DNA of 40,007 bases from contig CAKKQO010000028.1 of NCBI GenBank assembly GCA_919902105.1, positions 49,220 to 89,226 on the forward strand, given 5' to 3'. A program made the translations under genes and the position numbers. Below the pieces are notes generated by a model, which ran no database searches, was not told the origin of the DNA, and worked only from the letters and a program-made list of their open reading frames with translations. The stretch is from Omnitrophica bacterium GWA2_41_15. Its GTDB lineage: Bacteria; Omnitrophota; Gorgyraeia; Ghiorseimicrobiales; Ghiorseimicrobiaceae. This document shows, piece after piece, positions 7,764 to 18,729 of this stretch (the first letter of the stretch is position 1; each line of letters opens with the position of its first letter).

Positions 7764-8618
7764 TTATCTCTTAAGCGGCAATATGCCGGCCATTTCGCCG
7801 ATAACATTGACCAATTCGGCATTTGCGGGAACCACGATTTTCGCATTATTTGCCAAGGATTTTTCCACTGCTTCAAGCTTCCTTAAAACCTGGGCATTAC
7901 CCACAAAATAATGCTCCGCTGCTTCATTTACCAGCTTAATCGCCGCTGCCTCGCCTTCTGCCTCTAAAATCCGCGCCTGCTTTATACCTTCGGCTTTTTT
8001 AATCTCAGCCCTTTTCTGTCCGTCAGCAACAGTCTCAGTAGCGGTAGCAAAATCAACCGCCGCGATTTTTTCATTCTCTGCCTTAACTACTTTATTCATT
8101 GTCTCCTGCACGTCTTTGGGCGGATCAATCTCTTTAAGTTCCGTCCTTACAATCTCTAAACCCCAGCTGCCTGTTTCATTACAAAGAGTCTTATGCAGTT
8201 CGGCATTAATCTTGCCTCTTTCGCTGTTGGCGGATTTTAAGGTAAGTGTGCCGATTATATTTCTTAAAGTCGTGCGCGCTAAATTTACAATCTGCCACTG
8301 GTAATTATTCACATTATACTGCGTGCTCTTTACACTGGCTTCATCGGCTTTTACTTTAAAATAAACCTGGGCATCAACTTTGGCATTTAAGTTATCATTA
8401 GTAATAATCTCCTGCGGCTCCGCATCCACCATTTGCTCGGTTATATTAATCTGGTAGATATTTTCAATTACAGGAAATACCCAGTTAAATCCCGGATTAG
8501 CAAAACGATTATACTTACCAAATCTTTCAATCAGGCCCCTGTGAGTAGGTCTGACAATTCTAATGCCCGCAAGAAATAGAAAAACAGCGGCAATAATAAT
8601 CAACCTTAATATACCCAT
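7764..8618 (-). CDS. SPFH/band-7 (stomatin/QmcA-like) membrane protein
   Basis: N-terminal TM, ERFGKY..PG, QEIITNDN and an AE-rich coiled coil. Confidence 0.92.
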   Translation of the reverse strand: MGILRLIIIAAVFLFLAGIRIVRPTHRGLIERFGKYNRFANPGFNWVFPVIENIYQINITEQMVDAEPQEIITNDNLNAKVDAQVYFKVKADEASVKSTQYNVNNYQWQIVNLARTTLRNIIGTLTLKSANSERGKINAELHKTLCNETGSWGLEIVRTELKEIDPPKDVQETMNKVVKAENEKIAAVDFATATETVADGQKRAEIKKAEGIKQARILEAEGEAAAIKLVNEAAEHYFVGNAQVLRKLEAVEKSLANNAKIVVPANAELVNVIGEMAGILPLKR

Positions 8619-8655
8619 TTTAACTCCTCTCGATGAGCCCCGCCGCTGGCGGGGC

Positions 8656-8718
8656 GAATTGACTCCGAAAGCTGCAAAAAAATTTAGTATAAATTTTTGA
8701 AGCGATTTGCTTTTGGAG
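8656..8718. repeat. ~63-bp long-hairpin repeat, copy 1
   Basis: GAATTGA-CTCCGAAAGC-TGC..AAAAATTT-loop-AAATTTTT-GAAGCG..GCTTTTGGAG; a second copy lies at 22516-22580. Confidence 0.8.
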
Positions 8719-8729
8719 CAAATAATTAT

Positions 8730-9746
8730 CTAAAGCACCCCTACCTCTTTTTTCCCTTTCACAACTTCTCCAATAACCCAAGATTTAAGATTGAAACTAG
8801 CCAATTTTGAAATTACAGATTCTTTGGATTGTTGTCCAACGATTAAAACTAAACCTACGCCCATATTTAAGGTATGAAACATCTCCTTATCAGAAATCCC
8901 GCCTTTATTTTGGATAAGTTTAAAAATTTTAGGCACAACCCAAGAATCTTTACGAATCCTTAGATTGATATTCTCCGGCAGGATACGCGCGATTTTATCG
9001 TAGAATGCGCCGCCGGTGATGTGAGCGATTCCTTTTATCGTGGTTCGTGGTTCGTAGTTCGTAGTTCGTAATAAAGATAAAACTGGTTTGACATAGATAC
9101 GGGTAGGCTTAAGCAGTTCTTTGCTCATCCGCTTTAACTCGGCTTGCGAAAAAAGCTTTCTGACTAAAGAATAACCGTTAGAGTGCAGCCCGCTGGACTC
9201 TATTCCAATCACAACATCCCCGGTTTCTATCTTTGAGCCGTCAATCACTTTCTCCCGCTCAACCACACCTACACAAAAACCCGCTAAATCATATTCGCCT
9301 CCCTTGTACGTCCCAGGCATCTGGGCGGTCTCACCGCCGACTAAAGAACACCCTGCCTCAAGACATCCTTGATTTAATCCTTTCACTACATCGATTAAAA
9401 CCTTTGAATCCACTTTGCTATAGGCGATATAGTCTAAAAAGAATAACGGCTCTGCGCCCGTGCAAAGGATATCATTTACATTCATTGCCACGGCATCAAT
9501 GCCAATGGTATCGTGCTTATTGGCTAAAGAAGCAATTTTTAGTTTTGTACCTACCCCATCCGAGGATGAAACTAAAATCGGTTCTTTGTATTTATCTTTA
9601 TCAAACTTGAAGAAACTCCCGAATCCGCCGATATCTTTTAGGACTTCCGGCCGAAAAGACCTTCTCACCAGCGATTTTATCTTATTCTTAAAAATACCCG
9701 CCTTTTTGATATCCACACCCGATTTTTTATAAGTTATATTTTTCAT
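8730..9746 (-). CDS. purM: Phosphoribosylformylglycinamidine cyclo-ligase
   Basis: TYKKSGVDI, DGVGTKL, GGETAQMPG, SGLHSNGYSL and AHITGG; the ATG at 9746 overlaps the purF TGA. Confidence 0.97.
   Translation of the reverse strand: MKNITYKKSGVDIKKAGIFKNKIKSLVRRSFRPEVLKDIGGFGSFFKFDKDKYKEPILVSSSDGVGTKLKIASLANKHDTIGIDAVAMNVNDILCTGAEPLFFLDYIAYSKVDSKVLIDVVKGLNQGCLEAGCSLVGGETAQMPGTYKGGEYDLAGFCVGVVEREKVIDGSKIETGDVVIGIESSGLHSNGYSLVRKLFSQAELKRMSKELLKPTRIYVKPVLSLLRTTNYEPRTTIKGIAHITGGAFYDKIARILPENINLRIRKDSWVVPKIFKLIQNKGGISDKEMFHTLNMGVGLVLIVGQQSKESVISKLASFNLKSWVIGEVVKGKKEVGVL
9038..9072. repeat. Heptamer tandem repeat (TCGTRGT)x5 inside purM
   Basis: Read directly; translated as LRTTNYEPRTT. Confidence 0.9.
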
Positions 9747-11188
9747 GCTCCGCAGCACTTTTTCTCTAATGCGTTCTTTCTAACCTTTCCTTCGTATTTT
9801 AACGGATAAATACCCGTCCAACAGGCAGTGCAATAATTTTCCCGAAGAGCACTTACGCTTTTAAGCATGCCTTCTAAGCTTAGATAACCCAAGGTATCTA
9901 CCTGAAGATATTTTCTAATATTTTCCAGCGGCATGCGAACAGCGATTAGCTCCTTCTGGGTATGAAAATCTATGCCGTAATGGCAGGGAAATTTATGCGG
10001 CGGGCAGCTTATCCGAAAATGCACTTCTTTTGCCCCTAAGGCGCGAAATGCCTTAACGCGCTTGCGAGATGTGGTGCCGCGCACAATAGAATCATCTACA
10101 ATAACAATACGTTTGCCCTTAATCACATCGCGCAAGATATTAAACTTAACCCGCACACCCAAGTCGCGCACTTTTTGCGATGGCTGAATAAAAGTCCTGC
10201 CGACATAGTGATTGCGGATAATGCCCATTTCTATGGGTATACATGAGGCTTGTGAAAAACCGATTGCCGCCGAAGTGCCGGAATCAGGCACGGGAATTAC
10301 AAAATCCGCCTCTACCGGATGCTCCCGGGCAAGTTCTATGCCTAATTTCTTTCTTACCTGATAAACCGTATCGCCAAAGACAAAAGAATCCGGCCGCGCA
10401 AAATAAACATGTTCAAAAATGCAATAAGCATGCCGCTTTGCCTTGGGAAACGGCTTAAATGACTTTAATCCGCTTTTATTTATCACGACGATTTCACCGG
10501 GCTCTACCTCTCGCAGCAACTTTGCCCCGATTAAATCCAAAGCGCAGGTTTCTGAGGCAAGGCATAAACTTCTGCCTATTTTACCGAGAACAAGCGGCCT
10601 AAACCCTAAGGGGTCGCGCACCCCGATAAGCTTATCCTTAGTCATCATCACCAAGGCATAAGCGCCTTTAACTTTCTTAAGCGCATAGATTAATCTCTTA
10701 ATCACATCCGGATTATGAGAACGCGCCATAAGCTGGACAATAATTTCTGAATCCGCGGTAGTTTGAAACGTAGAGCCGCTATTTTCTAATCTGCGCCTTA
10801 ATTTTATTGTATTGATTAAATTACCGTTATGTCCGATGGCTAATGAACCTTTAAGATAATCTACCAATAACGGCTGGGCATTTTTTAGGACACTAGAGCC
10901 GGTAGTAGAATAGCGAAGATGGCCGATACTTATATACCCCGATAACTTCTTAATATTTTCTTCATTAAAAACATCCGACACCAAACCCACGCCTTTATGA
11001 ATAGAAAGGGTCTTTCCGTCGCTCGCCACTATGCCGCAGGCCTCTTCTCCTCTATGCTGGAGCGAATACAACCCTAAATAAGTAAGCCACGGCGCTTCAT
11101 AATTATCATAAATTCCAAATAAACCGCAATGCTCTCGTGGTTCGTGGTCCGTGGTTCGTAGTCCGTAGTTACAAATACCTTTTTGCAT
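9743..11188 (-). CDS. purF: Amidophosphoribosyltransferase (Fe-S type)
   Basis: EHCG Ntn cysteine, QHRGEE, GHLRYST, VDDSIVRGTT and C-terminal CTAC. Confidence 0.97.
   Translation of the reverse strand: MQKGICNYGLRTTDHEPREHCGLFGIYDNYEAPWLTYLGLYSLQHRGEEACGIVASDGKTLSIHKGVGLVSDVFNEENIKKLSGYISIGHLRYSTTGSSVLKNAQPLLVDYLKGSLAIGHNGNLINTIKLRRRLENSGSTFQTTADSEIIVQLMARSHNPDVIKRLIYALKKVKGAYALVMMTKDKLIGVRDPLGFRPLVLGKIGRSLCLASETCALDLIGAKLLREVEPGEIVVINKSGLKSFKPFPKAKRHAYCIFEHVYFARPDSFVFGDTVYQVRKKLGIELAREHPVEADFVIPVPDSGTSAAIGFSQASCIPIEMGIIRNHYVGRTFIQPSQKVRDLGVRVKFNILRDVIKGKRIVIVDDSIVRGTTSRKRVKAFRALGAKEVHFRISCPPHKFPCHYGIDFHTQKELIAVRMPLENIRKYLQVDTLGYLSLEGMLKSVSALRENYCTACWTGIYPLKYEGKVRKNALEKKCCGA
11135..11169. 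repeat. Heptamer tandem repeat (YCGTRGT)x5 encoding the PurF propeptide
   Basis: Read directly; same unit family as the purM repeat. Confidence 0.9.
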
Positions 11189-11987
11189 AATTTACTCCGT
11201 TACGAAAAATTACTAAACCATCGCCTTCTTTTTTCAAACCATCGCGCGTCCATCTGGGATGCTGGCTGCCTTGGATATGCCTTTCCGGATGCGGCATCAG
11301 CCCAAAAATCCTGCCCGTTTCATCGCAAATTCCGGCGATGTTATCTAGCGAACCATTAGGATTATCCGGATAACCGCCTAATTTTCCTTCTTTCTGGCAA
11401 TACTGAAAAACAATCTGGCCGTTTCTTCTTAATTTATCTAAAAGTGCTTTATCTTTCGTGACAAATTTTCCTTCCCCGTGCGCCACCGGTAAATAAATAA
11501 TCTCCGGCAGCCCTTTTGTCCATATACATTTCGTGCTTCGGGGTACCCGCGCGATAGCGTGGGTCGCGTGCTTCGTGCTTCGTAAATAAGTCCAGCGGTC
11601 TTCGAACTTGCCTGAATCATTGATAATAAGGCTGACTTCCTGCGGAAAATCTTCTTTCCCCGGTAAAATTCCCGCTTTTACTAAAATCTGGAATCCATTA
11701 CAAATACCGATGATCAGCTTTCCCGCCTCGATAAACTTTCTTAAATCATCACCTAACTTAAACCTTAGCTCGTTGGCCAGGATTTTTCCTGCCCCCACAT
11801 CATCGCCGTAAGAGAACCCCCCGGGCAGGGCTAAAATCTGATAGTCATCTAACCTTTCTTGCCCTCTTACAATTTCGTTTATGTGCACAAGAGAAGCTTC
11901 GGCTAAAGCTTTCTCAAAGGCAAACTTCGTCTCCTTATCGCAGTTTGTGCCGGCGCTGCGCAGGATGAGCACTTTCGGACTTGGCAT
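11169..11987 (-). CDS. purQ: FGAM synthase glutaminase subunit PurQ
   Basis: GTNCD, PGGFSYGD, GICNGFQ, AHGEG, NPNGS and MPHPER. Confidence 0.97.
   Translation of the reverse strand: MPSPKVLILRSAGTNCDKETKFAFEKALAEASLVHINEIVRGQERLDDYQILALPGGFSYGDDVGAGKILANELRFKLGDDLRKFIEAGKLIIGICNGFQILVKAGILPGKEDFPQEVSLIINDSGKFEDRWTYLRSTKHATHAIARVPRSTKCIWTKGLPEIIYLPVAHGEGKFVTKDKALLDKLRRNGQIVFQYCQKEGKLGGYPDNPNGSLDNIAGICDETGRIFGLMPHPERHIQGSQHPRWTRDGLKKEGDGLVIFRNGVNYAKRYL
11530..11585. repeat. TTCGTGC heptamer array interrupted by a 29-bp hairpin element (11538-11566), inside purQ
   Basis: TCGGGGTACCCGCGCGATAGCGTGGGTCG is flanked by TTCGTGC units; a second copy lies at 17148-17176. Confidence 0.85.
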
Positions 11988-12025
11988 TTTTTATCCTCTT
12001 GTTTACGGCGCGGATTATTATCTTC

Positions 12026-12054
12026 TTGACAAGTAATCATTATTGAGGTATACT
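12026..12054 (+). promoter_or_regulatory. sigma70-type promoter
   Basis: TTGACA (12026-31), 17-bp spacer, TATACT (12049-54); no ORF follows on the + strand. Confidence 0.85.
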
Positions 12055-12060
12055 TAAAAT

Positions 12061-12120
12061 GAATCACGATGAGAGGTTATCCAAAGGGTTCCGTCCCGCG
12101 GTAATACCTCTCTTTTTATT
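12061..12120 (+). ncRNA. Putative ~55-nt structured small RNA convergent with the NYN gene
   Basis: Starts directly after the promoter. Outer stem GAGAGG/CCTCTC, middle stem TTATC/GGTAA, apical GGG-TTCCGT-CCC, then a T-tract overlapping the NYN stop codon. Confidence 0.65.
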
Positions 12121-12613
12121 TATACTCCAACTTATCCTTCAAATCATTCATAAAAACCATATCGGAAGTGAATCCCCTCAAAAGCGATGAAAATTTATAT
12201 CGGTTTGGAATAATAAGCTTTTCTAATTTGTTCTGTTTTTCAAGATGATCGATTAGACAGTAGAAATCGCCGTCCCCGGTAACAATAATAGCTTTATCAT
12301 AATTCGCATACTCTATCATTGCATGAAGGACTAACTCAGCATCTATGTTGCCTTTTACTTTTCCGTCAGGTAAATGTAGCGTTGGTTTAAAGATAAGGAT
12401 ATATCCGTATTCTTGCAGCGAAGTATACAAACTCTCATTTGTAGGAAGGTAACCTATAAAAATAAACGCCTTACTAGCACAATATTTATCCTGCAAATAT
12501 CTTCTAAATCTCTTAAAATCAAGCACCCAACCTTGATCGCGAATAGCAAGGTTTAAATTCTGACTGTCAATAAAAGCATAGTTGTTTATTATCTGCTTGT
12601 TTTTAATTTGCAT
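12116..12613 (-). CDS. NYN-domain (LabA/DUF88, PIN-like) ribonuclease
   Basis: AFIDSQNL, KGNIDAEL and VTGDGDF acidic motifs are intact; likely start is the ATG at 12613. Confidence 0.92.
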   Translation of the reverse strand: MQIKNKQIINNYAFIDSQNLNLAIRDQGWVLDFKRFRRYLQDKYCASKAFIFIGYLPTNESLYTSLQEYGYILIFKPTLHLPDGKVKGNIDAELVLHAMIEYANYDKAIIVTGDGDFYCLIDHLEKQNKLEKLIIPNRYKFSSLLRGFTSDMVFMNDLKDKLEYK

Positions 12614-12700
12614 ATACTCGATATTTATTCTACTTTGTGGTACCTCTTTATGCGAATCAAATTTTCTACTATTAATTTTGGTCAAGATACTCGATATTTA
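12614..12700. repeat. 14-bp direct repeat ATACTCGATATTTA (12614-27, 12687-700)
   Basis: Exact match, 73 bp apart, immediately upstream of the NYN start. Confidence 0.7.
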
Positions 12701-12812
12701 AATATCTATTTAAAATATCTTTTACTGCCGCCGTTACAGCATACATATCGGATACACCATATAATTTTTAAAATCTTCTATGCTGATTTTAATTTGTAAT
12801 TTTTAAGACTTT

Positions 12813-13541
12813 TCATAACGATAACTCATGGCTTATATTGTGATAATTTAAAGATGCATCGTAATATTTCTCGATATCTGCATAATCAATAAATCGGCAC
12901 CTATCCGCAATATTCTTAAAAGCTGCTTTCGAAATCTCGCGCTCATATTTTGTCTTCCGTTGTAATGAAGCAACAAGGTTAAAATTTGTTCTAAAATCTT
13001 GTAATTCTGTAAATTTGACTAGCGAACCACGAAAATCCGTAGAGTCTTCAACTTCAAATAGTTTTTCAGGAAACCCTCGTAAATTAAACCATGCTACATC
13101 GCAAAATTTGATTGATTGAACTATCTTTTCGTATGTAAAATTCGGACATTCTTTGAAACTGGCAATATTGCCTAGTCCCTTATTCCTAAAAATTTTGCTT
13201 CTATCGGGCGTATATGTCTCAAATCCTTTCATGTTCCCAATTTCAATAATCATTCCCTGAATTTCGGTATGTTTATAACTGATCTTTTCCAATTGTGTTC
13301 TTGGTTCAACAATATGTGGCAGTTTTTCTAAGTATTCCGTCAACGCGTACACACCGAGACCGATACGTGTAAATCGCTTATCCCGTTGCACTCGCTCTTG
13401 TATAGTTTTAAGTGGGGTCAATCCAGTAAAAGGACGGTGCCTTTCAAATTCTTTATAAATCAATTGTAGTGGTGCATAGTAGTCGTTTTCTAGCATCACT
13501 TTCTCTATTGCCTCAGAAAATGTAATTTCGTTTCTTGTCAT
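12813..13541 (-). CDS. Winged-HTH (HARE-HTH-like) plus PD-(D/E)xK restriction-endonuclease-like protein
   Basis: N-terminal TFSEAIEKVM..GLTP..TI..GVYAL wHTH pattern; C-terminal H..IQG..DVAW..FEVE.ST nuclease-like core. Confidence 0.6.
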   Translation of the reverse strand: MTRNEITFSEAIEKVMLENDYYAPLQLIYKEFERHRPFTGLTPLKTIQERVQRDKRFTRIGLGVYALTEYLEKLPHIVEPRTQLEKISYKHTEIQGMIIEIGNMKGFETYTPDRSKIFRNKGLGNIASFKECPNFTYEKIVQSIKFCDVAWFNLRGFPEKLFEVEDSTDFRGSLVKFTELQDFRTNFNLVASLQRKTKYEREISKAAFKNIADRCRFIDYADIEKYYDASLNYHNISHELSL

Positions 13542-13726
13542 AATGAGACCCGGTAAAAATCCCACTTAATTCCTAAAATTACATCATTTTTATTTTCGGT
13601 ATCATAATGTTTAAGAAAACGCTTATTATCAAATACATCGTAACCATAAGTACCGCCACGACCATTAACAATATCAAATGTTTTTTGTAACAAGTACGTA
13701 TCGCCTAAGATCTTTATCGCTTTCAA
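13538..13726 (-). pseudogene. 3' fragment of a truncated gene, translationally coupled to the nuclease-like gene
   Basis: 62-codon open stretch with no convincing start or RBS. Its TGA overlaps the next ATG (ATGA). Confidence 0.4.
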
Positions 13727-13755
13727 TTTGTTTATAAGTCAAATGTTTAATGTCC

Positions 13756-14418
13756 TCACTTATTATTCTTAGAATAGAACTTTTTTATTGCCGCAACTAT
13801 TTCCTGCGGTGTATCCGCTAAAATAAATATATTTAAGTCTTTTCTCTCAATGCAATTTTTTCTTAAGGCCACTGTTTTAATCCAGTGCATTAGCCCCTGC
13901 CAATAATCACGGCCTGCTAAAATAATGGGAAATCTATCTATCCTCTTTGTCTGGACTAAAGTTAAAGATTCAAATAATTCATCAAATGTTCCGTATCCGC
14001 CGGGGAAGATTACAAAGGCCTTGGCGTATTTTACAAACATCACTTTACGCACGAAGAAATAGCGAAAATCAAGTAAGGTATCGATATACTTATTCGGCTT
14101 CTGCTCTGTTGGAATCTGTATATTTAAACCGATAGACTGCCCGCCTGCTTTTTTCGCGCCCTTATTCCCTGCCTCCATTATCCCCGGACCGCCCCCGGTA
14201 ATTACAGCATATCCTTCTTTAGCCAATAAATAAGCAGTCTCTTCAGCGAAGTGGTAATATTTATCGCGCCTATTAAGCCGCGAGGAACCGAATAGAGAAA
14301 CTGCCTTACCTACTTTAGACAAAACCTCAAATCCATCTACGAATTCTCCCATAATACGGAAAATCCGCCACGGGTCTTCAGAAGTAAAGTCAACCGGATT
14401 ATTTTTTTCTTCTCTCAT
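13756..14418 (-). CDS. LOG family nucleotide phosphoribohydrolase (TIGR00730)
   Basis: TGGGPGIMEA, RYFFVRK and PGGYGTFDE. Confidence 0.93.
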   Translation of the reverse strand: MREEKNNPVDFTSEDPWRIFRIMGEFVDGFEVLSKVGKAVSLFGSSRLNRRDKYYHFAEETAYLLAKEGYAVITGGGPGIMEAGNKGAKKAGGQSIGLNIQIPTEQKPNKYIDTLLDFRYFFVRKVMFVKYAKAFVIFPGGYGTFDELFESLTLVQTKRIDRFPIILAGRDYWQGLMHWIKTVALRKNCIERKDLNIFILADTPQEIVAAIKKFYSKNNK

Positions 14419-17406
14419 CTACCACCTCAGGGGCTTCTGCCATGCTTCTTTTAATTTGCTGATATCGCTTTTAATAATTGCCTTGCCATCTAATCCATAA
14501 ACCCGAAAATCTTTTTTCTCTGATACGCATCCAATTAGACCTATAGGAATACCCTTCATTGCCTTCTCAAATGCCCCCTGAGCCTTCTTCTCTGTCTCTA
14601 CCACAAATCTAGTGTTTGATTCTGAAAACAAAATTACATCATCTCTAATCTTTTTATTTTTTTTACTTTGACTCTTTGACTCTTTGACTCTTTGACTCTC
14701 TTTATACGGCACTTCGCTCAAAAATACCTCCGCGCCAAGACCACCGGCAAAGCACATCTCGGAAATTGCAACTGCCAAACCGCCTTCAGAACAATCATGG
14801 GCTGAACGTACCAAACCTTTAGCCGTCGCGGAACTTAATTTTTCCATTACGGTTTTTGCCATCTTTCTATCCACCTGCGGCACATTCGCCCCTATCTGAT
14901 TATGCAGTTTATAATAAACAGAACCACCTAATTCGTCTTTGGTAACGCCAGCGATATAAATTAAATTTCCCGCACGCTTAAAATCCATGGAGATAGTTTT
15001 AGTTATATCCTCCATTACCGAGATAGCGGAGATTAAAAGCGTTCCGGGAATAGGGATACTTTTACCTTTTACATTGTATTCATTATATAAACTGTCTTTA
15101 CCGGAGATAAAAGGAACAGCGAAATATTTAGCAAAGTCATAGCAGGCATAAGCCGCCTCGACCAGCGTTCCCAGCCTATCCGGCTTATCCGGGTTTCCCC
15201 AGCAGAAATTATCTAAGATTGCGGTTTGTTTTAGATTTCCTCCAACGCAAACTATCTGCCTTAACGCTTCATCGATAACTGATGCCGCCATCCAATAGGC
15301 AGATATTTCTCCATAACGGGGATTTATACCGCAGGAAACAATCAGCCCCTTTTTCGAAGATAAAATCGGCCGCACAACTGAGGCATCCGATGGCCCGTCA
15401 TTATTTACCCCCACAAGCGGCTTTAATACCGAAGCACCCTGCACCTCATGGTCATATTGGCGGATTACCCATTCTTTGCTGGCGACATTATAATCGGATA
15501 AAATCCTACATAAATCCGGCGTGTAATCTTTTTTCTCCTCTATGCGCGGCTCTCTTAAATTACGCTTTAAGCCTACAGCCTTTTTCTCCGACAGAGGCAC
15601 GCCGTCGTGTAAAAAATCCATCTCTAATTCGCCCACTAAATTATCCTGATAGAAAAGCCGCAGCATCTTATCTTGCCCGAATTCCCCTATTACTGTTGCT
15701 TCAACATCTTCGGAATCAAAAACATTAAGCAGTCTATCGATATTATCACCAGATGCAGCTAAAACCATCCTTTCTTGCGCCTCAGAAATCCAGATTTCGT
15801 CATAGCGTAAGCCTTTATACTTTAATGGTACTTTATCTAAATAAACCACAGCACCCAGTTCCCTACCCATCTCGCCCACAGCGCTGGATAATCCCCCTGC
15901 TCCGCAGTCAGTGATGGCATTATATAAATTTTCATCGCGCGCTTTTAGCAAGACATCGAGCAATTTCTTTTCAGTAATGGGATTGCCTATCTGCACGGCT
16001 GAGCCAGAAACCTCCTCGGATTTATGCGTTAACTCCCCAGACGAAAAAGTCGCACCGTGGACACCGTCCCTTCCGGTCCGGCCGCCCAACAGAACAATTA
16101 AGTCTCCGCTATTAACTAATTTAGACGCTTTGCCTTTAGGAATTAGTCCGGCCGTCCCGCAATAAACTAAAGGATTGCCGACGTATCCTTCATCAAAGAG
16201 AACTGCGCCGTTTATGGTAGGTATGCCCATTTTATTGCCATAGTCGCGCACACCGCTGACTACACCTTTGGCAATTCTTTTAGGATGAAGTGTCCCGGCA
16301 GGCAGCCTCCCCGCAGAATAATCCGGCGGGCCAAAACAGAATATATCGGTATTAAAAATCGGTCTTGCCCCCAACCCTGTGCCTAAAGGGTCCCTGATTA
16401 CGCCGCCGATCCCGGTATTTGCACCGCCAAAAGGCTCAAGCGCCGAGGGATGATTATGCGTCTCGACTTTAAAACAAACATCGTAATCTTTATCAAACTT
16501 AATTACTCCGGCGTTATCAGAAAATACCGAAACACACCAAGGTTTATTTAATTCCTTTGTCGCCTTCATTATCGTTGATTTAAGTAAGTTATTTATTATT
16601 TTTGGTTTTGGGTTTTTAATTCTGGATTTGTTTCGGATTTCGGATTTCGGATTTCGGATTTCTCCTTTATATTCTATCTTTCCCCTAAAGGTCTTATGCA
16701 CACAATGTTCTGACCATGTCTGGGCAAATGTCTCTAATTCTACATCCGTAGGGTTTCTTTTTAGGCGGGTAAAATATTTTTTTATCGCGCGCATCTCGCT
16801 AACGTTTAAAAATAACTGCCCGTCCCGGCTGATTTTTTGTAATTTTTTATCTGATGCGCCCAATAAATCTATAGAGACTAAGTTAAATTTATAGTCAATA
16901 TCGCGTAAGCCTAACTCTTCTTGCGCGCTGGTGACTGCATGCTGGATTACTTTATTTACTAACAACTTATTGCAGACGGTCCTAATTTGAAGATTAGTGA
17001 GTTTTCCGCGGATGATATATTTTTTTGCGGTGTGGATAGTTCGTACGCCGGAAATCCCCAGATCCGAAATCGCCTTTTTTACTGAATCCTCAACCGGGTC
17101 CATTACTCCCGGATTATAAGCGACTTCAATAAAAAAGGCGTTGTGCGTCGGGGTACCCATGCACAAGCATGGGTCGTCGGCGTTCTGCGCATTAATACTG
17201 TATTCCTGGGAAATTTTATCAGCCAATAATTCTTCGCAGATACGCTTAATTTCTGCTTCGCCTAAATCACCCTCAATAGAGTATGCTTGGATAAAATTAA
17301 CTTTCGAGACAGTATTTATCCCTAAATCGAAGATATCTTTTTTGATACCTTCGCCAACAGCATCAAAGATGCCGTACTTTTCTTTTACCTCAATGTGCCA
17401 AAACAT
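14419..17406 (-). CDS. purL: FGAM synthase PurL with N-terminal PurS-like domains
   Basis: QTWSEHC.HK, KVETHNHPS, GRDGVHGA, DCGAGG, SEAQERM, SGKDSLYN and HDCSEGG; ~170-aa double PurS-like N-terminus. Confidence 0.96.
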   Translation of the reverse strand: MFWHIEVKEKYGIFDAVGEGIKKDIFDLGINTVSKVNFIQAYSIEGDLGEAEIKRICEELLADKISQEYSINAQNADDPCLCMGTPTHNAFFIEVAYNPGVMDPVEDSVKKAISDLGISGVRTIHTAKKYIIRGKLTNLQIRTVCNKLLVNKVIQHAVTSAQEELGLRDIDYKFNLVSIDLLGASDKKLQKISRDGQLFLNVSEMRAIKKYFTRLKRNPTDVELETFAQTWSEHCVHKTFRGKIEYKGEIRNPKSEIRNKSRIKNPKPKIINNLLKSTIMKATKELNKPWCVSVFSDNAGVIKFDKDYDVCFKVETHNHPSALEPFGGANTGIGGVIRDPLGTGLGARPIFNTDIFCFGPPDYSAGRLPAGTLHPKRIAKGVVSGVRDYGNKMGIPTINGAVLFDEGYVGNPLVYCGTAGLIPKGKASKLVNSGDLIVLLGGRTGRDGVHGATFSSGELTHKSEEVSGSAVQIGNPITEKKLLDVLLKARDENLYNAITDCGAGGLSSAVGEMGRELGAVVYLDKVPLKYKGLRYDEIWISEAQERMVLAASGDNIDRLLNVFDSEDVEATVIGEFGQDKMLRLFYQDNLVGELEMDFLHDGVPLSEKKAVGLKRNLREPRIEEKKDYTPDLCRILSDYNVASKEWVIRQYDHEVQGASVLKPLVGVNNDGPSDASVVRPILSSKKGLIVSCGINPRYGEISAYWMAASVIDEALRQIVCVGGNLKQTAILDNFCWGNPDKPDRLGTLVEAAYACYDFAKYFAVPFISGKDSLYNEYNVKGKSIPIPGTLLISAISVMEDITKTISMDFKRAGNLIYIAGVTKDELGGSVYYKLHNQIGANVPQVDRKMAKTVMEKLSSATAKGLVRSAHDCSEGGLAVAISEMCFAGGLGAEVFLSEVPYKESQRVKESKSQSKKNKKIRDDVILFSESNTRFVVETEKKAQGAFEKAMKGIPIGLIGCVSEKKDFRVYGLDGKAIIKSDISKLKEAWQKPLRW
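14666..14697. repeat. Octamer tandem repeat (CTTTGACT)x4 inside purL
   Basis: Read directly; translated as ESQRVKESKSQS. Confidence 0.92.
16600..16662. repeat. Heptamer tandem repeat (TTTCGGA)x4 plus degenerate units inside purL
   Basis: Read directly; translated as EIRNPKSEIRNKSRIKNPKPK. Confidence 0.9.
17148..17176. repeat. 29-bp hairpin element, copy 2, inside purL
   Basis: TCGGGGTACCCATGCACAAGCATGGGTCG matches 11538-11566 at 23 of 29 positions. Confidence 0.85.
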
Positions 17407-17436
17407 ATTTTAGGCAGGACTAACTTTAAGAGTGGT

Positions 17437-18729
17437 TTAAATTCCTATACGTTTAAAAATATTGTTGATATTGCGCAGGTAATAATCAAGGCTGAAGCAG
17501 TCCTTAATTTCATTTTCGCTTAAGACTTTTCTTAAGGCGGCGTCTTTTAAAAGATTAGCCTGAAAATTCGTGCCTTTATTCCATGTCGCAAGAGCGTTTC
17601 TCTGCACGAGTTCGTAGGCAGACATCCGTTTTAATCCTTTTTGCATTAATTTAGTTAAAACGGCTTGCGAGAAAATCAGGCCGCCGGTTTTGACTAAATT
17701 CTTTAGCATATTTTCCGGATAAACCACCAAACCCTCAACTACCTCGGTCATCTTTTGCAGCATATAATCCAAGAGGATTGAGGAATCCGGAAGAATAATC
17801 CGCTCAACCGACGAATGGCTGATGTCGCGTTCATGCCAGAGGGCAATATTTTCTAAGCCGGCCATGGCATTGGCACGCAATATACGGGAAAGGCCGCAAA
17901 TGCGCTCGCAGATTACCGGGTTTCGCTTATGCGGCATCGCTGAGGAACCCTTCTGACCCTTAGCAAACGGCTCTTCTGCTTCAAGAACTTCCGTGCGTTG
18001 TAAATTTCGAACTTCTAAGGCAAATCTTTCTAAGCTAGATCCCACAATAGCTAAGCGCGCCATATACACGGCATGGCGGTCGCGGGGAATAATTTGCGTG
18101 GAAACCGGCTCAACTTCAAGGCCCAATTTTACAGCAATATATTTTTCTATAAATGGGTCAATATTGGAATATGTCCCCACGGCGCCGGAGATTTTTGCAA
18201 AAGATATATACTCTTTTGCTTGCTTAAGCAACTGCTGTGCGCGCAAAACTTCCGAATACCAAGAGGCGAGCTTCAACCCAAAGGTAGTCGGTTCAGCATG
18301 CACGCCATGGGTCCTGCCGATACAGACCGTATTTTTGTATTTTTTGGCTTTATTGCGGATTGCTTGGGTAAGCTTATTTAGATCAGAAAGTAAAATATCT
18401 GCCGCTTCTTTACATTGAAGAGCTAAAGTAGTATCCAAGATATCCGAAGATGTAAGGCCGAGATGAAAATATCGGGCATCCTTACCTATATACTTTGATA
18501 CTTCAGCGATAAAGGCAACTATATCATGCTGGGTTTTTTTCTCTACTTTCTTGATATTAGAAAGGTTAAATTTTGCCTTCTTTCGAATGCGCTTTACCGC
18601 GCTTTGTGGGATATTGCCTAATTTTGCCTGCGCTTGGACCGCAAGTATTTCAATCTCAAGGAGCTTAGTAAACTTATTCTCCTCTGACCAGACGTGTGAA
18701 ATTTCAGGCAGGCTATAGCGCTCAATCAT
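17437..18729 (-). CDS. purB: Adenylosuccinate lyase
   Basis: MIERYS, H.GLTSSD, GRTHGVHAEP and GSSAMPHKRNP. Confidence 0.98.
   Translation of the reverse strand: MIERYSLPEISHVWSEENKFTKLLEIEILAVQAQAKLGNIPQSAVKRIRKKAKFNLSNIKKVEKKTQHDIVAFIAEVSKYIGKDARYFHLGLTSSDILDTTLALQCKEAADILLSDLNKLTQAIRNKAKKYKNTVCIGRTHGVHAEPTTFGLKLASWYSEVLRAQQLLKQAKEYISFAKISGAVGTYSNIDPFIEKYIAVKLGLEVEPVSTQIIPRDRHAVYMARLAIVGSSLERFALEVRNLQRTEVLEAEEPFAKGQKGSSAMPHKRNPVICERICGLSRILRANAMAGLENIALWHERDISHSSVERIILPDSSILLDYMLQKMTEVVEGLVVYPENMLKNLVKTGGLIFSQAVLTKLMQKGLKRMSAYELVQRNALATWNKGTNFQANLLKDAALRKVLSENEIKDCFSLDYYLRNINNIFKRIGI

Follow-up and report, generated by a model that had tools for sequence, protein, structure and literature searches.

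A stretch of forward-strand DNA from Omnitrophica bacterium GWA2_41_15 (contig CAKKQO010000028.1, positions 49,220 to 89,226; 40,007 nucleotides in all, hereafter the window) was found to contain a two-part cassette composed of a promoter-less gene encoding a 165-amino acid (aa) NYN protein on the minus strand and, between purQ and this gene, a convergent plus-strand gene for a small RNA of about 58 nt. A separate sigma-70 promoter, close to the consensus, serves the RNA gene, the intrinsic terminator of which abuts the NYN stop codon. We interpret the pair as probably being a module of a ribonuclease (RNase) toxin and an RNA antitoxin (a probability of roughly 0.55), and the locus is most likely an autonomous cassette, about 600 bp in length and with two parts, that is horizontally mobile. 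The toxin and RNA-antitoxin interpretation is favored because a nuclease-fold gene that lacks its own promoter lies next to a very strong promoter that drives a tiny RNA, because the two parts co-occur strictly with no protein partner, and because the cassette has a patchy distribution, is inserted in housekeeping operons and in a phage, and loses the protein before the RNA.

The first-pass annotation of the window had pointed to a strong plus-strand promoter, TTGACA-N17-TATACT, that leads into no open reading frame (ORF) and is followed by a multi-stem hairpin and a T-tract ending on the NYN stop codon. All of the elements so described are present, and the one frame of 43 codons that does start there (12059-12190) is not kept in relatives. 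The promoter matches the consensus at 11 of 12 positions and ranks first of the 23 promoter-like sites in the interval 8000-18000; the whole 40-kb window has two sites scoring at least 11/12, the second of which (minus strand, 21896) lies directly before an ordinary ORF. As listed in Table 1, the ends of the small RNA were inferred from the positions of the promoter and terminator: the sequence AAUCACGAU begins 7-9 bases past the -10 box, and a 42-nt hairpin follows. The folding energy of the hairpin was -19.5 kcal/mol, compared to a mean of -11.9 for shuffled sequences (z = -2.9, with 3 of 200 shuffles as good), a z-score that is modest when taken alone. The T-tract of the small RNA overlaps the NYN stop codon (12116-12118), and the RNA is complementary to the DNA just past this codon. 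On the NYN strand, the hairpin is preceded by an A-tract and is not followed by a U-tract, such that this strand is without a terminator there.

The conservation of the RNA unit at NYN genes was evaluated in three samples. In three related genomes, NYN homologues of 73-81% identity have different downstream genes, yet the hairpin, the leader, and the -10 and -35 boxes are kept. A scan of one genome per species gave 30 further NYN loci (44-85% identity), and loci with both the NYN gene and the RNA span the Omnitrophota, Elusimicrobiota, Planctomycetota, Chloroflexota, Acidobacteriota, and several Patescibacteria lineages. A covariance model (R1) was built on the genome-locus RNA sequences, and it matches the window at 12059-12127 on the plus strand with 84.3 bits. 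It was found with R1 that the RNA is present at the 3′ end of the NYN gene in 33 of 33 distinct genome loci (36-87 bits), in 78 of 80 metagenome loci that were kept out of at least 587 relatives, and in 3 of 3 viral-contig loci from IMG/VR. Of the metagenome matches, 68 had E values of 2e-6 or lower and 10 had values of 0.0018-0.36, all ten of these weaker matches being at the expected position. The two metagenome loci missed by R1 are L065, the contig of which ends before the site, and L111, in which a diverged copy is visible by eye. Thus, no NYN gene lacking the RNA was found among the homologous loci with available downstream sequence, whereas none of three loci with distant NYN genes (27-33% identity) had a match to R1. 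There is one copy of the RNA per locus in the R1 scan, with no tandem RNA repeats at the site, and the window's own genome has a single copy each of the RNA unit and the NYN gene.

The promoter is conserved together with the RNA: the -35 box is exactly TTGACA in 26 of the 33 genome loci, both boxes match at 11 or more of 12 positions in 28 of the 33, and the spacer is 16-18 nt long with a sequence that is not conserved. The aligned homologues also have a T-tract 3′ of the hairpin. Because the unit recurs beside this NYN subfamily in more than 110 independent loci, its presence is beyond chance, and the element belongs to a widespread family as opposed to being a one-off. The earlier argument that the structure is not a generic terminator is borne out by the NYN homologues, which keep the promoter, the ATCACGAT leader, a covarying stem, and the loop. 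A plain intrinsic terminator was rejected on the grounds that the promoter, leader, internal loops, and loop sequence are also conserved and are specific to one gene family. This is a conserved structured RNA dedicated to one NYN subfamily.

The structure of the RNA was evaluated in an alignment of 92 distinct sequences fitted to the covariance model, and covariation was also examined on 33 sequences. In the three-helix hairpin, 95.4% of the cells of the 92-sequence alignment are paired, as opposed to 88.5% in shuffles and 49-76% in controls in which the pairing was slid. Compensatory changes occur at 12 of the 12 base pairs, the observed values were reached by 0 of 500 shuffles, and an independent RNAalifold analysis of a MAFFT alignment recovered 10 of the same pairs. 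When the paired columns are read on the small-RNA strand, there are 75 G-U compared to 16 A-C combinations (46 compared to 12 when the terminal pair is left out). This G-U excess, the conserved promoter boxes, and the T-tract after the hairpin indicate that the functional RNA is on the plus strand, convergent to the NYN gene. The unpaired positions that are conserved at 90% or more in the 92 distinct sequences are A-UCAC in the leader and, on the 3′ side of the loop, G-U followed by C-C. A variant was seen in L133 (104-188), where the apical loop has a GC-rich palindromic insertion of about 16 nt that splits UUC from CGU; this contig ends before the expected NYN gene.

The NYN protein matches the Pfam family PF01936 (E = 6.5e-12, 46.6 bits relative to a cut-off of 24.2), with one further, sub-threshold Pfam match to HSNSD_N (E = 0.0057), and its best PADLOC match is the NYN model of that database. 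An AlphaFold2 model of the protein (pLDDT 91.9) was compared to known structures with Foldseek, which returned the LabA-like protein 2qip (E = 3.8e-8, TM 0.72), the NYN domain of MARF1 (E = 5e-4), and also T5 flap endonuclease and the Regnase PIN domain; 2qip is the sole sequence relative of the NYN protein with a solved structure. Residues D16, D91, D114, and D116 are invariant across 17 homologues, in agreement with the first-pass statement that the catalytic Asp residues are intact and with the four acidic active-site residues expected in the NYN family, according to the portion of the classification of PIN-like proteins by Matelska et al. 2017 (PMC5499597) drawn on here. The protein is predicted to be a metal-dependent ribonuclease. 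The same portion of that classification (PMC5499597) counts more than 8,000 bacterial LabA-like NYN proteins, lists the function of bacterial NYN.COG1432 as unknown, and mentions no RNA partner for them.

The limits of the cassette were evaluated from its surroundings. The DNA upstream of the NYN gene is unconserved across loci, the flanking genes are mostly housekeeping genes, and the 150 nearest flanking ORFs fall into 146 Pfam families, none of which is represented by more than two ORFs. No linked protein partner was found in this set, which agrees with the previous remark that there is no protein antitoxin gene. Because the upstream DNA is unconserved and no flanking protein recurs, the conserved unit extends from the NYN start codon to the -35 box of the RNA, or about 600 bp. 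A genome of the same genus (G001) has the empty site: purL, a LOG-family gene, and purQ are contiguous, and the stop codon of the LOG gene overlaps the start codon of purQ. Because of this overlap, the corresponding ~1.77 kb in the window's pur operon represents an insertion. The earlier proposal of a two-part cassette inserted in the pur operon is right about the insertion, with the correction that the ~1.77-kb block holds, in addition to the NYN-RNA cassette, an unrelated HARE-HTH/NmeDI_C-like gene that resembles a restriction endonuclease. In an IMG/VR phage contig (L134, 1988-7035), the cassette is located between the portal and large-terminase genes in the opposite orientation, and several NYN-RNA loci adjoin tRNA genes. 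In the NYN tree, sequences from different phyla are interspersed, but the tree has little resolution (3 of 25 inner branches starred) and does not suffice to prove transfer.

Sampling was also done starting from the RNA. A search of 151 Omnitrophota genomes with R1 gave 12 matches in 10 genomes, of which 8 are beside an intact NYN gene, 1 is beside a 5′-truncated NYN gene (L126), 1 is at a contig end, and 2 are orphans (L129 and L132), both with a promoter and both in one genome. A search of 151 Patescibacteria genomes with R2 gave 27 matches in 23 genomes: 23 are beside a convergent NYN gene (including L168, with 1 stop in NYN, and L157, where the match covers NYN residues 63-149 only), L156 is a remnant in which about 15 N-terminal NYN codons remain, fused to the terminator of the RNA, two matches are orphans (L148 and L159), and one (L170) falls at the end of a contig. 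Among the protein-sampled loci, a decayed NYN gene accompanies an intact RNA in L025 (a TAA nonsense codon), L101 (2 stops), and L039 (5′-truncated). Overall, the RNA was found beside a damaged or partly matched NYN gene in 7 loci (L025, L101, L039, L126, L156, L157, and L168) and without an NYN gene in 4 (L129, L132, L148, and L159), and these 11 loci suggest one-sided decay, in which the RNA outlasts the protein. A different rearrangement is present in L057 (1501-2082, on a 608-kb metagenome contig), where the whole RNA unit, comprising the promoter, leader, hairpin, and T-tract, is inverted and lies on the NYN strand about 50 nt downstream of an intact NYN gene.

The orphan RNAs have neighbors of several kinds. 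The flanks upstream of L129 and L132 are identical for 60 nt, including the promoter, and so these two copies are part of a larger duplicated segment; as read from translations, one of them faces a convergent RhuM/Fic-like ORF of 332 aa, and near the other is an ORF6N-type ORF. Judging from the translation, orphan L148 adjoins an ORF resembling a RelB/DinJ-type antitoxin, behind which lies a disrupted frame of toxin-like appearance; this suggests a spot rich in toxin-antitoxin genes.

In the mechanism that we propose, the NYN protein would be a harmful ribonuclease that is kept in check by the abundant RNA, and the pair would act as an addiction or abortive-infection module. The NYN protein would most likely recognize the RNA by direct contact, in the manner of type III systems and AbiF/RCd22. 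This mode is favored because unpaired nucleotides are conserved across phyla, because the RNA of L057 is inverted next to an intact NYN gene, and, weakly, because no RNase III domain was found in four genomes that host the cassette. The invariant single-stranded 5′ leader next to the helix may serve as a pseudo-substrate for the NYN protein. A 5′ single strand abutting a helix is the type of substrate on which PIN/FEN-fold nucleases act, and the resemblance of leader plus stem to such flap substrates makes this role plausible. The first-pass annotation had also allowed for an RNA that guides the NYN protein, which is unlikely because the leader is invariant rather than variable. Antisense pairing with the 3′ untranslated region (UTR) of the NYN mRNA might add to protein recognition, a contribution that is possible because no separate terminator is present on the NYN strand.

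Several points weigh against this interpretation. In the plasmid database, only NYN genes of less than 35% identity were found, the cultured-phage database has no NYN homologue, and the cassette contains no recognizable means of moving. Sequencing errors can produce in-frame stops in metagenome contigs, and with the small count of decayed loci (11) the asymmetry of decay is suggestive but not proof; moreover, one-sided decay would equally fit an RNA that is useful by itself. The inversion in L057 is a single case. The RNase III domain (PF14622, and also PF00636 in the window's own genome, G000) was not found in G000, G001, G002, G003, or G078, which are 90-97% complete, but the same search was positive in only 8 of 14 control genomes, and another carrier of the cassette, G021, has RNase III; the absence of the domain from the cassette hosts G000, G002, G003, and G078 is thus suggestive only. 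Furthermore, LabA-like NYN proteins are without a demonstrated toxin role in the portion of the PIN-like classification cited above (PMC5499597).

The same observations were weighed under other explanations. Regulation could be by antisense only, in a type I-like manner, with the RNA pairing with the 3′ UTR of the NYN mRNA to trigger decay or block expression and never touching the protein. The NYN mRNA would have to read through the hairpin because its strand has no U-tract, L057 is the only protein-sampled locus in which the two genes are not convergent, each of the 32 RNA-sampled loci that have an NYN gene shows the convergent arrangement, a strong antitoxin promoter would fit, and the geometry is that of the Bacillus subtilis pairs txpA/RatA, bsrG/SR4, and yonT/SR6, which interact at their 3′ ends (PMC6562991, in the part drawn on here). 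However, a cis-antisense RNA needs no conserved primary sequence, whereas the leader and loop are near-invariant across phyla, and the overlap is past the stop codon, far from the translation start. The inverted unit of L057 is not antisense to its NYN gene, the orphan RNAs keep a promoter where there is no NYN mRNA to pair with, and the lack of an RNase III domain in four cassette hosts is a further, weak, argument. We consider antisense action without protein contact to be unlikely. Rather more doubtful is a ribonucleoprotein partnership in which the RNA does the work itself, or serves as a cofactor or as a substrate that the NYN protein matures, with another task such as defense sensing or regulation of a conserved host RNA, and in which the NYN protein alone is non-toxic. 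Vertical inheritance and fixed contexts would be expected of such a partnership, but the cassette is scattered (10 of 151 Omnitrophota genomes and 23 of 151 from the Patescibacteria), and its insertion sites lie among housekeeping genes that are unrelated to one another and within the packaging module of a phage. A fixed target in the cell or in a phage would likewise be compatible with the strict co-occurrence and the conservation of the leader. For a programmable guide, a leader of about 9 nt is not long enough and varies too little. The orphan RNAs with intact promoters (L129, L132, L148, and L159) could mean that the RNA works alone, and the listing of bacterial NYN function as unknown in the excerpted classification (PMC5499597) leaves room for such a task.

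The unit might also be a transcriptional insulator, in which a convergent promoter and a one-way terminator shield the neighbors of the inserted gene and the RNA is functionless. The terminator does act for the plus strand only, such that minus-strand transcription of the operon can reach purQ, but an insulator would have no need for an invariant leader and loop, for internal loops, or for compensatory changes beyond hairpin stability. In addition, the unit is specific to one NYN subfamily, being absent from the 3 distant NYN loci, and it survives where the NYN gene is gone, all of which makes an insulator highly improbable. That a micro-peptide is produced, either from an 11-codon frame beginning at a conserved AUG or from the 43-codon frame, is scarcely credible: the AUG at the leader-stem junction is present in most copies and the 43-aa frame has a hydrophobic stretch, but the AUG is AUA in 7 of 33 loci, the change in loop length among copies (5 or 6 nt) alters the frame, the ~10-nt leader has no ribosome-binding site, and the terminator lies inside the long frame. 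No conserved reading frame was found in the RNA in the aligned relatives, and peptide coding was rejected because the start codon and frame are not kept.

A number of other candidate features of the RNA were tried and set aside. A leader-loop pseudoknot (ACGA with UCGU) could form at least 3 of 4 pairs in 84 of 92 sequences, which equals the shuffle expectation (3.34 compared to 3.35) and speaks neither for nor against it. A DnaA box, TTATCCACA with at most 1 mismatch, is present in only 10 of 95 units, in 6 of these within the stem, and is not a general feature. As judged by eye, the RNA could pair with the 5′ coding region of NYN (GGCUAUC/GAUAGCC) in some of the loci; the pair in the window lacks this complementarity, and the idea was dropped. 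An integron attC site, which is an imperfect palindrome at the 3′ end of a cassette lacking a promoter and has GTTRRRY/RYYYAAC cores, was rejected as well: the aligned sequences show no core of this kind, the unit has a conserved promoter, and the G-U pairs favor a one-strand RNA fold.

A more far-reaching version of the toxin and RNA-antitoxin interpretation would extend it to a new toxin-antitoxin class. In this tentative scheme, which we regard as possible but doubtful as a whole, a single-hairpin pseudo-substrate RNA would place its leader AUCACGAU in the NYN active site and would in addition exert antisense control at the 3′ end, as a hybrid of types I and III; several NYN clades would each have their own RNA; and the class would be common in small-genome lineages (23 of 151 Patescibacteria genomes) and phage-borne for addiction or abortive infection. 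A second NYN clade (L007, L137, and L141) has a different convergent unit of promoter, hairpin, and terminator about 100 nt downstream, with the common terminator GCCCGUUGAAAAAGACGGGC, and a third clade (L139 and L140) has yet another convergent unit; L138 is outside this pattern. The NYN genes of the second and third clades are 27-43% identical to that of the window.

Table 1. Features of the NYN-RNA locus and its neighborhood in the window (position 1 is the first nucleotide of the window).
Feature	Position	Strand	Remarks
Small-RNA promoter	12026-12054	+	-35 TTGACA 12026-12031, 17-nt spacer, -10 TATACT 12049-12054
Predicted small RNA, ~55-60 nt	12061-12121	+	Start inferred 7-9 nt past -10 box; end inferred in T-tract
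Conserved unpaired 5′ leader AUCACGAU	12063-12070	+	A-UCAC at least 90% conserved in 92 distinct sequences
Hairpin	12071-12112	+	Fold and covariation
Outer stem, 7 bp, GAGAGGU/ACCUCUC	12071-12077 with 12106-12112	+	Fold
Internal loop UAU/UAAU	Between outer stem and 2-bp stem	+	Fold
Middle stem, two C-G pairs	12081-12082 with 12100-12101	+	Fold
Internal loop AAA/GC	Between middle and apical stems	+	Fold
Apical stem, 3 bp, GGG/CCC	12086-12088 with 12095-12097	+	Fold
Apical loop UUCCGU	12089-12094	+	Fold
Intrinsic-terminator T-tract TTTTTATTT	12113-12121	+	T at 12113-12117, then A, then TTT
NYN gene, 165 aa	12116-12613	-	LabA-like, PIN-like fold; predicted metal-dependent ribonuclease, putative toxin
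purQ	11169-11987	-	Followed by purF and purM, same strand
Inserted block, limits approximate	11997-13755	-	Between LOG-family gene and purQ
Co-inserted 250-aa ORF	12813-13565	-	HARE-HTH and NmeDI_C-like restriction-endonuclease domain
LOG-family gene	13756-14418	-	Window gene order
purL	14419-17406	-	Window gene order

The co-inserted 250-aa ORF is outside the conserved cassette, as it is not a neighbor in the other loci. It has an Atlas feature score of 0.98, a structural TM of 0.89 to NmeDI_C clusters, and a weak PADLOC match to REase_II. It looks like a solitary restriction endonuclease of the HARE-HTH plus NmeDI_C type, with no methyltransferase within the insertion. Upstream of the NYN start codon there are two copies of a direct repeat, AAATATCGAGTAT (12610-12700, minus strand), and a 12-nt AT-rich tandem repeat of 2.5 copies (12695-12724). 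These repeats, neither of which is conserved in the other loci, may represent a local promoter or operator.

In a search of Rfam 15, nothing in the window reached the gathering score and only tRNAs did so in 20 loci; at E values up to 10 the matches were at chance level, and a match to S774 was rejected because it rests on the tRNA-like 3′ tail of the S774 model. A full-text search of the main text of openly accessible papers found no report of an NYN protein paired with a small RNA or an RNA antitoxin. A dedicated RNA partner would be a concrete and testable handle on one branch of the very large LabA-like NYN family. The RNA of about 58 nt is well defined by covariation and has sharp motifs, which makes rescue, binding, and structural work straightforward, and the cassette of about 600 bp is compact enough to be synthesized and tested in Escherichia coli.

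The module is comparable to several known systems without coinciding with any of them. It resembles type III systems (ToxIN, CptIN, and TenpIN), as described in the excerpts of that literature used here, in combining an endoribonuclease-type protein with a dedicated non-coding RNA and no protein antitoxin, in being small, mobile, and phage-related, and in a conservation of RNA motifs that suggests recognition by protein. It differs in the toxin fold, which is NYN/PIN-like here and ToxN/CptN/TenpN in type III, and in that one hairpin makes up the RNA, which is encoded downstream in convergent orientation under a promoter of its own, whereas type III RNAs are tandem repeats upstream on the same transcript. 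The AbiF/RCd22 pair of a Clostridioides difficile prophage is similar in that a toxic protein and a structured non-coding RNA are phage-borne, and, in the part of the preprint relied on here, RCd22 neutralizes AbiF in cis and in trans by direct RNA-protein contact (bioRxiv 10.1101/2025.04.15.648962). The protein described there is of the Abi_2/AbiD/F type (Cas13-related) as opposed to NYN, with a different gene arrangement. The RNA of that system has abiF motifs, whereas the RNA described here matches no Rfam family and its partner has no Abi_2 match.

Among type I systems, par of Enterococcus faecalis is one pair that overlaps at the 3′ ends. The pairs txpA/RatA, bsrG/SR4, and yonT/SR6 are likewise convergent and 3′-overlapping with a strong antitoxin promoter (PMC6562991, in the same part as above). 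Type I toxins are small, usually hydrophobic membrane peptides, in contrast to the 165-aa soluble enzyme fold found here, and type I RNAs, unlike this one, are not known to be sequence-conserved across phyla. One locus of the present family, L057, lacks the antisense geometry. In VapBC and other PIN type II systems, the toxin is, as predicted for the NYN protein, a PIN-fold metal-dependent RNase with four acidic active-site residues, in a small, mobile, and sometimes multi-copy module, but VapB is a protein antitoxin encoded upstream in the same operon; here there is no protein partner and the nuclease is of the NYN branch. The LabA-like NYN proteins (COG1432; 2qip) are of the same Pfam family and fold; the portion of the PIN-like classification used here reports neither an RNA partner nor a toxin role for them (PMC5499597), and the subfamily described here is defined by its RNA. 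The pair is most likely an RNA-antitoxin module in which both the toxin fold and the arrangement of the genes are new. If so, it would add both to the few known RNA-antitoxin systems, and it would place an RNA antitoxin in the Patescibacteria and Omnitrophota, in which type I and III systems have hardly been reported.

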